DNA of 64,000 nucleotides. Source: a virus. The stretch lies in the IMG/VR virus record IMGVR_UViG_3300013947_000003, positions 1 through 64,000 of that record; one strand, written 5' to 3'. The position numbers and the translations under genes were made by a program. Below the pieces are notes generated by a model that worked only from the letters and a program-made list of their open reading frames with translations, searched no databases and was not told the DNA's origin. How positions within the stretch are numbered: position 1 is the first letter of the stretch; every line of letters begins with the position of its first letter. Below, piece by piece: positions 51,952 to 58,057 of this stretch.

Positions 51952-51964
51952 CACTCCTCCCCAC
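51952..51964 (+). repeat. left copy of the 13-bp direct repeat CACTCCTCCCCAC
   Basis: Identical to 58045-58057. It lies at the AT-to-GC compositional transition. Confidence 0.85.
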
Positions 51965-52130
51965 CCCTGGCGAGCCAGGGGGATATCCCCCGGGGGGCTA
52001 TATATCACAGTAGTCCCAACATGGCCCATACAGCCGAACATTGCTGCTATGGCCCAATTAATGCTTGCTAGTGTTCACTCAACTTCAGGAGTGAGGGAGC
52101 TGACCTATTCAGCCTTATAATTAACATGTT

Positions 52131-52141
52131 TCACTTAAAAA
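52131..52141 (+). promoter_or_regulatory. conserved upstream element TCACTTAAAAA
   Basis: Member of the WCACTTAAAAC motif family (six copies, all on the plus strand). Confidence 0.4.
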
Positions 52142-52414
52142 CCATATAGGATATGAAAACAAAGCATTTCCTTATGGGGGCAAAGCAATAATTGCCTCAG
52201 CATTATTCTTTGCTGGGGCAATTGCATATGTCTTCATCATTTGGACATCCTCCAAAGATGAGGACTAATGCCCCATGTTGGGTTGCCAACACCCAACGTA
52301 TGTAGATAAAATTGGCCAACATTATTCATTCTCCCCATCTCCTCTTTTTATTATTAACCCAAACCTTCACACTGGGAATATAGTCTATCTAGACTGGTTA
52401 AAGTGTATAAAAAA

Positions 52415-52891
52415 ATGCGATATATGTGGACGATAGAAAATGGGTACGGCCTGCTGCAAAAATGCAGCAATGCTGCAACCCTAGAAGGGGTCTTCACAGA
52501 AATTTTAGAAGAGATCCGGGAGCACTTTATAGTGTGCTCTATATGGACATCGTTTAGCGACAGGTATCCTATAAGGATACCTTTCACGGCAACTTCACTC
52601 CTCGGCGAATACTTCGCCGGGGAGGTGGTATATGATAAGGCGGAAAACCGCCTCATCATATATGAGGATGAATATTCTGCCCCCTCTAAAGAGGTGGCAA
52701 GACGGTGGTGCGAGGGGCCCACCAAACCCAAAGAGTTGCTCTTATATTGGAGCAACTCTCCATTTAGGGCAGATGTGCAGAGGGCCTACAGCCACACAGC
52801 TCTCTGTGTGGCATTCCTGGCCACGGGGGAAGTGGCCTCCTCATACGAGGAGGCGTGGAATATTGTTAGAGAGGCTGCTGAGCAGTCTTAA
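52415..52891 (+). CDS. island ORF 1, hypothetical (158 aa)
   Basis: Track ORF 52403-52891, trimmed to the first ATG. It has a TAA stop followed by a hairpin (52935-52960). Confidence 0.55.
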   Translation: MRYMWTIENGYGLLQKCSNAATLEGVFTEILEEIREHFIVCSIWTSFSDRYPIRIPFTATSLLGEYFAGEVVYDKAENRLIIYEDEYSAPSKEVARRWCEGPTKPKELLLYWSNSPFRADVQRAYSHTALCVAFLATGEVASSYEEAWNIVREAAEQS

Positions 52892-53212
52892 CAATATCCC
52901 CAGGATGAGCTCAAGAGCGATTGAATAAAAGGCCCTACAAAGCCTTTTACTTCACTCTTGAGTTCACCAAAGGTGGGTGGCCTGTTGGGTTTGTAGGCAC
53001 CCCAACATTAGACAAAAACCTACAGCACACTGCTCCCTCAGTAATATTCTATGCCCTCCATTAATTGGTTGTAGCCCTCAGTTTGCATATTGTATTATAT
53101 ATATGTAAACTTCTCTTTAGTTATGCATAGTTTCAGGTCATTCTTATCCATAGAATGGCTTGTTACTAATGCTGTATGTCTCGTTGATTTATTAACTCTT
53201 AACCTCAAAGAT

Positions 53213-53521
53213 ATGGAGTTACATAATTATACTCCTCACACAATCTCTTTGAATAATGGCACACAGTTCCCCTCTGAAGGGTTGGCTCGTGTGGCCAATA
53301 CATTCACAGAGTTTGTGGAAGGTATCTGTGAGGTACACTTTGGAGACATCCAAGGACTTCCTGAGCCTCAGGAAGGTGTCCTGTATATAGTGTCTGCACT
53401 TGTATTGTCTGCAGCTAAGGCTGCTGGCCGTACAGATTGTGTGGCACCTGCGACAGGACATCCTGATTGCATCCGTGATGCAAAAGGATTTATCCTGAGT
53501 GTGCCTGGCTTTGTTCGATAG
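53213..53521 (+). CDS. island ORF 2, hypothetical (102 aa)
   Basis: Track ORF trimmed to ATG 53213 (MELHNYTPHTISL...). It ends at a TAG. Confidence 0.55.
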   Translation: MELHNYTPHTISLNNGTQFPSEGLARVANTFTEFVEGICEVHFGDIQGLPEPQEGVLYIVSALVLSAAKAAGRTDCVAPATGHPDCIRDAKGFILSVPGFVR

Positions 53522-53636
53522 AATAGAGCCTTCACGGAGTTTTCACCTTGCAAAATAATGGGAGTTTTGTAAGGGCTTTCCTTGGCAACAGAATAAAGCC
53601 AGGTTCCCATAATGTTTAATTCATAATATTATAATA

Positions 53637-53882
53637 ATGTTAGCATTGTTACAATATAATGAAAGCGAGGTCTATAGCAGCAGCCTCTTTCTTAACAAAG
53701 AAGAGGCTAAACTGCAATTCGCCAAGCTCAAAGAAGAGTTTGCCAAAGAGGAAGGCAATACCTTCGAAGAACTTGGTGAGGGCCATTTTACATGGTGTTC
53801 TTGGGACAGCCTGGAATTCCAATATGTAAAATTGGTGGACCTCGGTCCCTCCTTAAGGGAATACTTTGGAGTAAACCTTTGA
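53637..53882 (+). CDS. island ORF 3, hypothetical
   Basis: Track ORF with a TGA stop. Confidence 0.5.
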   Translation: MLALLQYNESEVYSSSLFLNKEEAKLQFAKLKEEFAKEEGNTFEELGEGHFTWCSWDSLEFQYVKLVDLGPSLREYFGVNL

Positions 53883-54085
53883 GAACTTTGGGTTTATGCT
53901 TTCCCAAAGTATAGATAAAAAAGCACAATATTAAAAAACTTATATCCCTATGAGTTTCTTTTATTAAAAGTTTTAGATTAGGGACCTTGTTTTAATCTCG
54001 GTTTCACACCACTATATTATATAGTGTGTTATAGTGGTGGCTTTATTAAAGTATATCACACACTACCACCAAAACATATACATCT

Positions 54086-54232
54086 ATGGAAACATTTGAT
54101 GTTATGTGCCTCCTAACAGTATTGCTTATAATAGCAATTCTGGGAGGCATTGTGTTCCTCCTAGAGGCCACCCCACTGTGGAAGAAGTTTCAAAACTTCA
54201 TTCTCCACATATGGGGTGGAGAGGAAGACTAA
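54086..54232 (+). CDS. island small TM peptide (48 aa)
   Basis: Reads METFDVMCLLTVLLIIAILGGIVFLLEATPLWKKF.... It is below the track length cutoff and has one hydrophobic helix. Confidence 0.35.
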   Translation: METFDVMCLLTVLLIIAILGGIVFLLEATPLWKKFQNFILHIWGGEED

Positions 54233-54348
54233 CTCACTCTCCTCTCTCCTCACCTCTACTCCTCATTCACTTAATTCTAACCAAAACCTCCCAGGTAGTA
54301 AGGGTGTATTCCCAAGCTTATAAAGCTGTTAAGACCTGTTCAAAAATC

Positions 54349-54738
54349 ATGACAAAATTTAATTTTGCTTACAATCGTCTTCGTGAAGCCTACATGGCAT
54401 TCACACACAGCCGTTCGTACAACTCCTTTCAGGCATGGTATAATGAGTGCCACTACATAGATTGGGTGTGGGGGTATTATGGGGGAATTTTCGAAAGGGC
54501 GGACTACTATAGTAGTCCGCAAAAAGAAAGAGCGCAGAGGGAGTGGGAGAGCTTCCTCCTAAGGACCGCTAAGATATTTGATATCTTAGCGGACTGCACA
54601 GACTGGCACGAATCTGTGCCGTACTTCTATAAGAACGGAGACCCAGAGGCGACTCTCCGTCAATTCTTCCCAGAACTGGAAGAAGCAGACAGAATAAAGA
54701 GGGAATCCTCTTTAGGGAAGGACTACTTCCCATTCTAA
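54349..54738 (+). CDS. island ORF 4, hypothetical (129 aa)
   Basis: Track ORF 54106-54738 trimmed to ATG 54349 (MTKFNFAYNRL...). The upstream extension overlaps the TM peptide and looks non-coding. Confidence 0.5.
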   Translation: MTKFNFAYNRLREAYMAFTHSRSYNSFQAWYNECHYIDWVWGYYGGIFERADYYSSPQKERAQREWESFLLRTAKIFDILADCTDWHESVPYFYKNGDPEATLRQFFPELEEADRIKRESSLGKDYFPF

Positions 54739-57083: not shown

Positions 57084-57108
57084 TATCTGTAATCAAATAT
57101 CTAAAATA

Positions 57109-57285
57109 ATGGATAAAGAAAAGAGGCTTGAAGAGCTGCGGTTTGATATAATGCGGCAAGAACTTATCAGTGGATACCTAAATGAAAGACTGATAGAAGT
57201 ATCAAAGAAACTCAAAGAACTGCGTAAAGAAGAAGATGACCTTGAAAGGCAAATCTTCGAAGAACTTGAAGCAGAAGAATACTAA
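57109..57285 (+). CDS. island ORF 12, small coiled-coil protein (58 aa)
   Basis: Reads MDKEKRLEELRFDIMRQELISGYLNERL...EAEEY*. It is below the track cutoff and was read by eye. Confidence 0.4.
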   Translation: MDKEKRLEELRFDIMRQELISGYLNERLIEVSKKLKELRKEEDDLERQIFEELEAEEY

Positions 57286-57428
57286 ACCATCCTATATAAT
57301 AGTGCCCTTGAGGAGTAAAATCCTTGAGGGCATTATTTTTTTCTGCCCGCTTGCGCGTGCAAGTCACTCTTTCCCATGCATGGAAGGCAAGGTTGCCAAT
57401 GAGAGGTTCAACCACCTTCCACATCTTT

Positions 57429-57439
57429 TCACTTAAAAC
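57429..57439 (+). promoter_or_regulatory. conserved upstream element TCACTTAAAAC
   Basis: Ends 31 nt before ATG 57471. Confidence 0.4.
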
Positions 57440-57470
57440 CTTATGGTGTATAGGTTAACCGTATACTGTT

Positions 57471-57758
57471 ATGTCTAAGTCAATTCTTAGCGGCAAAGTT
57501 TATGCAGGTTCTTGGAATCTCGACTCCACTGAAAACCTCAGCCAAGAGGAACTCAATGCCTTCGAGAAGGCCACGGTGGTAGATTCCATGTATGGACTTT
57601 CTTGCTGCTTTCTAATGCATAGCGGCGAGAAGATCTACGTCCCCATGGCCACCCAAAGTGGGGCCAAAGCAGGGGATGTCCTTGACTTGCACACCATGAA
57701 GAAACTCACCCTCTCCAAATCAGGAGAGGAAGATATTCTTCGTATCATGGAGGGATAA
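57471..57758 (+). CDS. island ORF 13, hypothetical
   Basis: Track ORF with a TAA stop, followed by a strong terminator. Confidence 0.55.
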   Translation: MSKSILSGKVYAGSWNLDSTENLSQEELNAFEKATVVDSMYGLSCCFLMHSGEKIYVPMATQSGAKAGDVLDLHTMKKLTLSKSGEEDILRIMEG

Positions 57759-57785
57759 TTAAACCCCCTCCTTCCGCTCTACATA

Positions 57786-57823
57786 CCCTCCTGGGAATTA
57801 TTCCTGGGAGGGTATTTTTTTTT
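57786..57823 (+). terminator. rho-independent terminator
   Basis: A 12-bp stem CCCTCCTGGGAA / TTCCTGGGAGGG (with two G.U pairs) is followed by a T9 run. Confidence 0.8.
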
Positions 57824-57905
57824 CAGTCACCTCTCTCATCTAAGTTTCCATTACTATTTATTAATCTATATTAACATTAATTAATAGTAATAACATTACT
57901 TTATA

Positions 57906-57976
57906 TTGGTATATTACCAATTATACCATACTTTTTATTGGTTTATTACCAATTTATACTATTGGTATGTTACCAA
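57906..57976. promoter_or_regulatory. three operator-like palindromes TTGGTA-n3-TACCAA
   Basis: The copies are TTGGTATATTACCAA (57906-57920), TTGGTTTATTACCAA (57938-57952) and TTGGTATGTTACCAA (57962-57976). Confidence 0.6.
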
Positions 57977-58044
57977 TTTTATCACAACAACCTCACTATA
58001 TGTGTGGGTTATGTTGTTGAATATCAGTGAGTTACAGATGTCCT

Positions 58045-58057
58045 CACTCCTCCCCAC
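58045..58057 (+). repeat. right copy of the 13-bp direct repeat CACTCCTCCCCAC
   Basis: Identical to 51952-51964. The flanking bases differ on both sides. Confidence 0.85.

Follow-up and report, generated by a model that had tools for sequence, protein, structure and literature searches.

A GC-rich cluster of small genes with a predicted Crn4-type ring nuclease, a probable early operon of a TAG-recoded crAss-like phage

The stretch of DNA analysed here (the window) comprises 64,000 nucleotides (nt) of the IMG/VR virus record IMGVR_UViG_3300013947_000003, and all coordinates are given in window numbering. It contains a GC-rich block of small genes of about 6.1 kb, which is the subject of this work and whose features are listed in Table 1. 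The replicative helicase encoded at 62553-63737 displayed 48-54% identity to those of the Steigviridae, namely cr126_1, DAC15, DAC17, the Kolpuevirus 'frurule' and IAS virus. Left of 51275, the minus-strand genes show hardly any long open reading frames (ORFs) in the standard code and become long once TAG is read as sense; 27 late-gene ORFs of this strand (window 4000-51275) contain 207 in-frame TAGs, the GC-rich block and the rightward early genes none. Since these TAG-readable late ORFs are accompanied by a tRNA with a CUA anticodon and a helicase of Steigviridae identity, the source phage is, judging from its sequence, a TAG-recoded, Steigviridae-like crAss phage. Late genes run leftward from about 51275, early and replication genes rightward. 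tRNA genes, among them Leu(TAA) and Arg(TCT), flank the block on both sides, in agreement with an earlier reading of the window made without database searches (the sequence-only reading), which had placed it between two tRNA clusters.

The block is well delimited by its composition. In 1-kb bins, the GC content amounted to 0.385-0.455 within 52001-58000 and to 0.27-0.38 elsewhere in the window, and a two-state maximum-likelihood segmentation of 44000-64000 returned a single block, 51950-57814, with a GC content of 0.416 inside versus 0.304 outside. The discrete step described by the sequence-only reading is therefore present in the GC profile, while its level of 45-50% was set too high for a mean of about 42%; values of 47-53% are reached only in 52450-53050 and 57400-57850. 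The left edge is supported at 51930-51960, the position of the first copy of the 13-mer CACTCCTCCCCAC. The right edge, at 57790-57860, coincides with a strong terminator (57783-57823) and lies about 230 nt short of the second copy, not just after it, as had been claimed. The perfect 13-bp direct repeat was correctly described, with both copies on the plus strand and no third one in the window, but it does not bracket the block exactly, because copy 2 is located outside the compositional block, beyond the terminator and an operator array. The GC skew inside is also unlike that of the surrounding plus-strand genes.

The compositional difference extends to the codons. At codon positions 1/2/3, the block genes revealed a GC content of 0.50/0.33/0.47 versus 0.38-0.40/0.30-0.33/0.21 in both backbone gene sets; TTA accounts for 13% of their leucine codons versus 42-48% in the backbone, and AGA for 18% of their arginine codons versus 61-74%. 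The codons avoided in the block are those read by the phage's own tRNAs, and from tRNA-Leu (58199) onward codon usage is of the backbone type. As tRNA-Leu heads the next transcription unit directly past the block, codons turn from host-like to phage-like just where, in transcription order, the phage's tRNA genes begin.

Table 1. Features in and around the GC-rich block (window numbering; aa, amino acids)
Feature	Position	Strand	Remarks
tRNA, anticodon CUA	49095-49168		head of leftward unit
Promoter-like tandem repeats, 3-5 copies (TTTTTTATATTTGTAA..)	51756-51931	+	AT-rich; Bacteroidetes-type -7 box TATATTTG at 51767
5' leader, non-coding, rich in G/C runs	51945-52414	+	hairpins CCCCTGG-CGAG-CCAGGGG and GGGGGATATCCCCC
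13-mer copy 1, CACTCCTCCCCAC	51952-51964	+	exactly on left GC change-point; species B reads CACTCCCCCCCAC
Gene-start motif TTCACTTAAAAC	52130, 54799, 55954, 57428, 58297, 59526	+	interval 52130-59537
Gene 1, 158 aa	52415-52891	+	highest GC in block (0.50; GC at third codon position 0.57); ORFan
Gene 2, 102 aa, Crn4/Unk01 family	53213-53521	+	
Three small genes, 81 / 48 / 129 aa	53637-54738	+	no assigned function
48-aa transmembrane peptide	54086-54232	+	
Translationally coupled triplet, 95 / 87 / 80 aa	54821-55603	+	stop and start codons overlap
Three small genes, 67 / 94 / 97 aa	55700-56613	+	orthologues in species B
Two-gene cassette, 152 + 58 aa	56625-57285	+	
Last gene, 95 aa, small all-beta domain	57471-57758	+	
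Intrinsic terminator, 15-bp stem then T8	57783-57823	+	at right GC change-point; kept in species B
Three operator-like 17-nt palindromes ATTGGTAnnTTACCAAT	57897-57978 (57905-57977)		spacing 32 and 24 nt
13-mer copy 2, CACTCCTCCCCAC	58045-58057	+	3' end of conserved ~75-nt block; species B reads CACTCCCCTCCAC
Next unit start	58157-58285	+	Bacteroidetes-type promoter (TTTG .. TAATTTTG at 58181), then tRNA-Leu(TAA)
tRNA-Leu(TAA)	58199-58285	+	first element of next transcription unit, directly downstream of block
tRNA-Met	59244-59318		

With 14 co-oriented small ORFs of 48-158 aa, the block matches the inventory of the sequence-only reading, which had also mentioned translationally coupled triplets and a small transmembrane peptide; one such triplet and the peptide were found. 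The third protein of the triplet (80 aa) looks like a coiled coil. Searches of Pfam, PHROGs and NCBIfam with the block ORFs gave two PHROGs of unknown function, both for gene 2, as the sole significant matches. No transposase, integrase or other recombinase domain was detected in Pfam, PHROGs, PADLOC or NCBIfam, as that reading had noted for recombinases. For gene 1, the homology search matched only proteins within the same phage species, and the alternative cassettes found in other strains and in a second species (see below) showed no significant Pfam family.

Gene 2 belongs to the Crn4/Unk01 ring-nuclease family, so that the statement that no function could be recognised in the block stands for 13 of the 14 proteins and falls for this one. 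It matched the PADLOC profile PDLC01138 'Unk_01' with an E-value of 8.6e-14 (residues 1-101 on profile positions 1-99 of 103), and a profile search of the PDB revealed the Crn4b chain 9r7b_A (E 0.014). An AlphaFold2 model reached a predicted local distance difference test score of 97.1 and a predicted template-modelling score of 0.86; at E <= 0.001, Foldseek matched it in the PDB only to the Crn4 entries 9r7b, 9sma and 9qs9 (E 5e-7 to 3e-5, template-modelling score up to 0.70), the next match having an E-value of 2.8. T7, P8 and H9 are invariant across 42 homologues, and the N-x-T-P-H motif aligns with NLTPH of Crn4b, which contains the catalytic Thr and His. R73 and R88 are invariant as well; the alignment to Crn4b ends at residue 70. 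Unk01 is the earlier name of Crn4, a characterised ring nuclease which degrades the cyclic oligoadenylates (cOA) cA3, cA4 and cA6, has a fold unique in the PDB and uses T13/H15 and R112 (Crn4a) or H17 and R103 (Crn4b) as catalytic residues (PMC12830947). Its copies on phages and plasmids have been proposed as anti-CRISPRs, 11 of 28,137 phage genomes were reported to carry it, and crAss-like phages and Prevotella are not mentioned there (PMC12830947). Like the viral ring nucleases described so far (Crn4b on phages and plasmids, AcrIII-1; PMC12830947), gene 2 encodes a small stand-alone phage protein, in which the Unk01/Crn4 profile, the crystal fold and the N-terminal Thr-Pro-His motif are kept; it differs in being just 22-25% identical to the solved Crn4 proteins, and its activity is predicted. 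On these grounds, we predict an anti-type III CRISPR, or anti-cOA, enzyme that would destroy cyclic oligoadenylates.

The homologues of gene 2 form 467 clusters at 90% identity, and those listed are 64-78% identical. Among the homologues whose context was examined, that of Prevotella prophages comes second in the early-right operon, adjacent to a CI-like repressor (CI/Cro); others were found on an extrachromosomal element of Segatella copri and in an unrelated 45-50% GC phage of some 96 kb. These relatives argue that at least this cassette stems from a shared, GC-richer phage gene pool, and their contexts make Prevotella or Segatella the likely host group. In the literature, no report linking Prevotella copri to type III CRISPR or Cas10 was found. 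A contig from the same sample series (L038; ERZ26859174 NODE_54, 96,385 nt, 43-53% GC) represents a phage different from that of the window, with which it shares only the Crn4-like gene (76% amino acid identity) and shows a similar layout, with a divergent junction followed by small genes.

The last gene of the block links it to other Steigviridae. Its 95-aa product displayed about 45% identity to proteins of cr126_1 and DAC15; two paralogues are encoded in the direct terminal repeat (DTR) of DAC15 and two in the early block of cr126_1, and the family comprises 302 representatives at 50% clustering. A confident structural model found no match in the PDB, and a structure search of a viral library matched only the cr126_1 homologue. 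The same domain also occurs at the C-terminus of large proteins combining a Ser/Thr kinase with BspA-type leucine-rich repeats (LRR), of Sel1/TPR proteins and of a DarT ADP-ribosyltransferase protein; tandem duplications of it exist, too. Its stand-alone phage copies might serve as decoys for such proteins. The family is the hallmark of early blocks in the Steigviridae.

For the comparison of regulatory elements and gene content, we made use of relatives of the phage. Look-up of exact proteins yielded dozens of conspecific contigs from several studies, including genomes of about 94-103 kb. The contigs compared (L002-L021) are 91-99.7% identical to the window; the block is present in each of them that extends to one or the other 13-mer site, and both 13-mers were found, unaltered, wherever they are spanned. 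A second species (species B) is represented by IMGVR_UViG_3300045988_177920 and the essentially identical sequence ULSH01000216.1, with a nucleotide identity to the window of about 80-86%. It has a GC-rich block at the same site (0.397 versus 0.298 outside) with the same layout of the edges. Identity between the two species amounts to 88% in the leader, 73-82% in the block genes and, depending on the species-B contig compared, 83-86% in the right flank; the block genes are no closer than the flanks, so that divergence of the block has kept pace with that of the backbone or exceeded it. GC enrichment was seen in all 14 block genes, orthologues are GC-rich in both species, and a sliding profile showed the species-B block to be enriched throughout, including its own private segments, which points to maintenance rather than to a fading foreign signature. 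The sequence-only reading had considered that close relatives might carry the block as a vertically inherited region without the repeats; it is indeed present in every spanning contig of both species, but the 13-mers are kept along with it, in species B with substitutions.

Both species share the frame of the block, namely its leader, terminator and operator zone, along with most genes in the middle; single genes are exchanged. Genes 1 and 2 and the 152-aa gene are missing from species B, which carries several additional private genes. In other strains, gene 1 is replaced by an unrelated gene of 233 aa (232 aa in species B), the swap spanning 52412-53070, and in several strains of the same species the 152 + 58 aa pair gives way to a single 77-aa gene, with boundaries at 56617 and 57293. 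The endpoints of these swaps are found at start and stop codons, not strictly at the gene-start motif TTCACTTAAAAC, in contigs that are 93-99% identical elsewhere. The lateral acquisition proposed by the sequence-only reading thus applies to single gene cassettes, not to the whole 6.1 kb as one mobile or recent insertion. Next to the junction, a 201-aa gene (50507-51174) is replaced by another gene in some strains (L002 and L014). In one contig, the late-gene end is 91-93% and the block 98.8% identical to the window, so flank and block histories are uncoupled within the species.

Several elements suggest how this frame may be expressed. The tandem repeats at 51756-51931, whose copy number in species B is unlike that in the window, are presumed to be the promoter cluster of the block operon. 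Downstream of them, no part of the block is better conserved in species B than 51934-52142 (88%), and folding of 51945-52135 as RNA gave a z-score of -3.6; copy 1 of the 13-mer opens this conserved, structured leader. Of two terminators proposed by the sequence-only reading, the one at about 57786-57823 was recovered with nearly the same limits (Table 1), and the other (52935-52960) did not appear in the terminator scan. Its triple operator array was found as the three palindromes ATTGGTAnnTTACCAAT, which occupy AT-rich DNA beyond the GC block, past the terminator and ahead of the next promoter, and are retained in species B. By appearance, they are either iterons or operators bound by a dimeric regulator; no evident DNA-binding protein was seen among the block genes. 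Using Rfam (gathering and E-value thresholds), only tRNAs were detected in or near the block.

The 12-mer TTCACTTAAAAC ties the block to its neighbours. With one mismatch allowed, it has seven matches in the window versus about 0.9 expected, all within 52130-59537, and each of the six plus-strand copies is placed about 10-30 nt upstream of an ATG. A hairpin precedes the motif at four of these six sites (54799, 55954, 57428 and 59526); at 58297 this place is taken by the 3' end of tRNA-Leu, and at 52130 there is only a weak upstream hairpin. The motif fronts both block genes and adjacent AT-rich early genes and is kept at the orthologous sites of species B. Being common to the block and the neighbouring backbone early genes, it argues that the block runs on the phage's own expression signals.

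Besides the block, two regions close to it deserve a description. In the non-coding sequence 51290-51625, which separates the promoter zone from the start of the 201-aa gene on the minus strand, the two phage species share about 98% identity, as compared to about 80-86% elsewhere. A role of this ultra-conserved region (51300-51640) as structured RNA was dropped, as no significant fold was obtained on either strand (z-scores -0.75 and +0.16); Rfam gave no match. Candidate explanations are an element acting at the DNA level (in packaging or as an origin), an N-terminal extension in recoded form, and a tract exchanged by recent recombination. On the other side, Rfam reported a fifth tRNA at 59364-59431 that ARAGORN did not, and a 22-nt repeat resembling a tRNA arm occurs three times (59153, 59287 and 59401; region 59153-59431), suggestive of a degenerate tRNA copy ahead of tRNA-Met. 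Contigs of many independent assemblies, four near-full-length SPAdes genomes of 94-103 kb among them, end at exactly one place inside tRNA-Met, at about 59311 (59286-59319). This common break is probably due to a tRNA repeat shared between genomes in the samples and not to a genome end, and contig ends were therefore rejected as a proxy for genome termini. One of the genomes ending in tRNA-Met (103,061 nt) is 6-7 kb longer than most others.

Searches beyond these contigs provided little. With 51700-58300 as query, megablast and blastn found nothing but tRNA-Leu in 50,697 phage records, two flanking proteins had no relatives in IMG/VR, and exact-pattern scans for the conserved leader and the ultra-conserved left element revealed only one IMG/VR and one metagenome contig, both of species B. 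Relatives with an empty site, or the block in another context, as a mobile element would leave them, were found neither among the contigs of the two species nor in the phage, viral and metagenome collections searched, where only these two species were met; nor was a circular form. Contigs consisting only of the block have no terminal overlap and hence give no sign of one.

In a broader comparison, the block takes a place known from other Steigviridae. Past the divergent junction, cr126_1 has about 25 small plus-strand genes, then a tRNA, further small genes, an HKD nuclease and the helicase; in DAC15, the junction is followed by a first small-gene operon, which constitutes the DTR of 1842 bp, then by tRNA-Leu and replication-side genes. 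This DTR, at 1-1842 and 97653-99494, holds the two 95-aa paralogues; DAC17 has one of the same length, crAss001 one of 576 bp, and that of DAC15 was inferred with PhageTerm. From the shared order and the 95-aa family it follows that the block is located where this viral family canonically has its early operon. The DTR operon of DAC15 and DAC17 (Wulfhauvirus) and the block of cr126_1 (Kolpuevirus) agree with our block in slot, orientation, small genes and the HKD nuclease and DnaB helicase that follow, and share the 95-aa family at 45% identity. In contrast, our block measures 6.1 kb versus 1.8 kb for the DAC15 repeat, exceeds its backbone by about 11 GC points where theirs are unshifted, and shares no other genes with them; terminal redundancy is derived from PhageTerm in DAC15 and is only a candidate property here.

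Phages T5 and SPO1 carry small early gene clusters within long terminal repeats, namely the pre-early (first-step-transfer) region and the host-takeover module, which are expressed first, from strong promoters, and shut down the host and its defences. To our knowledge, no compositional shift has been described for them. Their many small early genes resemble the block, with no sequence relationship, and for the block both a terminal repeat and a first entry are hypothetical. In T4-type phages, hyperplastic regions harbour early ORFan genes shuffled via PeSL promoter/stem-loop cassettes (PMC2839356, PMC4122927). The likeness lies in small early ORFans that vary among near-identical genomes by gene-sized replacement, and in a composite motif (the 12-mer, at most sites with a hairpin) at the gene boundaries of the block; the motif itself is unrelated, has only 6-7 copies and belongs to a phage of a Bacteroidota host with other promoter rules, and its activity is putative. 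With integrative islands that are flanked by short direct repeats, the block has in common a distinct composition, a perfect short repeat near both ends and adjoining tRNA genes.

The two 13-mers require a closer look. Copy 2 is situated 141 nt upstream of tRNA-Leu, outside the tRNA gene, and right after it conservation versus species B drops sharply for about 40 nt. In species B, copy 1 is again found exactly at the left change-point and copy 2 about 210 nt past the terminator, with one and two substitutions, respectively, which is in line with the local divergence of about 12%; the repeats are no better kept than their surroundings. Both copies show one common T-to-C difference at position 7 versus species B, for which we estimate a chance of about 0.1, not significant alone. 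The sequence-only reading had called a chance recurrence at both edges very unlikely. Indeed, CACTCCTCCCCAC is the most GC-rich (0.69) of the window's exact 13-nt repeats, and, drawing on the empirical repeat density of the window, about 0.005 pairs are expected if the copies may deviate by up to 30 nt from the left and 300 nt from the right edge, or about 0.05 if 300 nt are allowed on both sides; but exact 13-nt direct repeats are common here, with 125 13-mer pairs within 10 kb, or an estimated 80 distinct ones after collapsing overlaps. The placement at the block edges is thus suggestive, neither overwhelming nor decisive. The partial inverted copies reported inside both ends exist as matches of 6-7 nt, about 130 nt and 8 nt from the repeats, and are unremarkable at such a length. 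A host-type promoter role common to both 13-mers was rejected, since copy 1 lies downstream of the promoter-like boxes and copy 2 about 110 nt upstream of its Bacteroidetes-type promoter. Conceivably, they mark the boundaries of a terminal repeat or the places of its end processing, serve as a signal (for binding or at the RNA level), or are relics.

How the block came to its place and what the 13-mers have to do with it can be explained in different ways. The sequence-only reading had proposed a single laterally acquired mobile or hitchhiking element of 6.1 kb, with the 13-bp repeat as target-site duplication or attachment core; an excised circle would then read ..GATGTCCT-CACTCCTCCCCAC-CCCTGGCG.. 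at its junction and the empty site ..TTATTACC-13mer-AGTTGGTGG... The sharp step at the left 13-mer, the differing GC skew inside, the extreme composition and low placement expectation of the repeat, equivalents in cr126_1 and DAC15 that are not GC-rich, and at least one gene with close relatives in Prevotella prophages would all fit. However, none of the marks of a transposon (recombinase, terminal inverted repeats adjoining the direct repeats, empty sites or other contexts) was found, nor any inverted-repeat pair linking the block ends; an integrase-type island is contradicted by the missing integrase, by a repeat copy lying beyond the block and outside tRNA-Leu, and by the lack of an alternative location among the sequences searched. 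Every contig reaching the site, in two species, carries the block there, and the species-B block has diverged as much as its flanks or more. Moreover, it uses the regulatory motif TTCACTTAAAAC of the neighbouring backbone genes, sits in the canonical early-gene slot together with a family-wide early gene, and turns over gene by gene, not as a unit. We therefore consider such an element very unlikely. Somewhat short of an even chance, and of another kind, is the explanation that the 13-mers are unrelated to the origin of the block, being either a chance or relic likeness or a short functional site used twice, for instance a protein-binding or RNA-level signal heading two successive early units. 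The abundance of exact repeats of at least 13 nt in the window and the ordinary divergence of the species-B copies are in favour of a likeness, against which the exact left-edge placement in two species and the extreme repeat composition have to be held. For a function speak the C-rich patch kept at both places in both species, the common position-7 difference and the fact that copy 2 closes a conserved 75-nt block; the differing positions relative to the promoters oppose a shared promoter role.

A further possibility, which we rate as rather unlikely, is that the block represents a direct terminal repeat of about 6 kb at both virion ends, with the 13-mers marking packaging cut or nick sites. 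This is compatible with an early anti-defence function and adds a claim on the genome ends, as in the T5 pre-early region and SPO1. Steigviridae do package via DTRs, and the block shares its position and a gene family with that of DAC15. In both phages, a palindrome of G/C runs follows the promoter-proximal boundary on its inner side, at a distance of a few tens of nt (GGGGTTATACCCCC in DAC15, GGGGGATATCCCCC here). In the window and in species B alike, the unit lies between two directly oriented 13-mers, and conservation breaks off abruptly right after copy 2. On the other hand, the boundaries of the DAC15 DTR share no k-mer longer than 9 nt and that DTR shows no GC shift, near-full-length contigs run through both edges of the block and break in many assemblies at tRNA-Met instead, and no contig was found with the block at both ends or with a terminal overlap. 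In a bolder version, which seems quite unlikely to us, the ends of a long T5/SPO1-like repeat of about 6 kb would be specified by the 13-mers, and GC content and codons would be actively maintained for the translation of anti-defence proteins, among them the Crn4 ring nuclease, before phage tRNAs are available. The block would then be the first DNA expressed, perhaps the first to enter the cell, its translation would precede the phage tRNAs and the suppressor tRNA, and the compartment would be a selected 'pre-tRNA' one, not a trace of foreign origin.

Weighing these explanations, we favour a resident operon: the block is probably the phage's own immediate-early host-takeover or anti-defence operon with turnover of its cassettes. 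The early host-takeover or anti-defence module suggested by the sequence-only reading is supported by the first co-directional unit past the divergent promoter zone, the strong terminator, the Crn4/Unk01 gene and the early-right position of its homologue in Prevotella prophages. Transcription would start at the promoter-like repeats, pass through the structured, conserved leader that opens at the first 13-mer, lead to the expression of about 14 small proteins and halt at the terminator. These proteins may act as host-takeover or anti-defence factors, among which the product of gene 2 would cleave the cyclic oligoadenylates of type III CRISPR; possible cA3 activity could also cover cA3-using CBASS (cyclic oligonucleotide-based anti-phage signalling systems). 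The frame of leader, terminator and operator zone would, together with its position, be inherited vertically within the genus as a 'hyperplastic' cassette array, in which single genes are gained, lost and replaced, partly from the Prevotella/Segatella phage gene pool, and the block is the positional homologue of the early operon within the DTR of DAC15 and DAC17. Its host-like composition may reflect recruitment from GC-richer phages of the same host and selection for translation by host tRNAs, conceivable because the block genes precede the first phage tRNA gene in transcription order; most likely, both contribute together.

Several points weigh against the resident operon. Promoters and transcription start are inferred from sequence alone; likewise inferred are the timing of expression, the activity of promoter and terminator, what made the GC content shift and whether the other genes counteract host defences. 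To 13 of the 14 block proteins, Pfam, PHROGs, PADLOC and NCBIfam assign no function. The conserved placement of both 13-mers is not explained by a resident operon, and with two species sampled, an ancient single insertion before their split could also underlie the block. The intergenic DNA of the block is GC-enriched as well (0.387), which codon selection does not explain, and the equivalent regions of cr126_1 and DAC15 show backbone composition though both phages carry tRNAs; codon selection alone is therefore insufficient, and a general 'pre-tRNA' selection is not the whole story.

Among the phages of the human gut, the crAss-like ones are the most abundant, yet their early genes and evasion of host defences are almost wholly unstudied. 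The locus provides a concrete candidate for an early operon in this group. Three leads emerge from it: the finding of a Crn4 ring nuclease in Prevotella phages as well as in Crassvirales, the early domain of 95 aa, and the compositional compartment. The predicted Crn4-type ring nuclease is thereby placed into a crAss-like phage, within a family that is large (467 clusters) in comparison to the 11 genomes reported before (PMC12830947). The 95-aa domain marks the early or terminal-repeat operon of Steigviridae and is fused elsewhere to kinase-LRR and DarT proteins. The compositional compartment covers the same stretch as a transcription unit, its end lying just short of the first phage tRNA gene. 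Should the GC shift be under selection, it would link codon usage with the phage's tRNAs and with expression timing in a phage whose stop codon is recoded. If the block turned out to be a terminal repeat, the T5/SPO1 logic of keeping takeover genes in the repeat would extend to Crassvirales.

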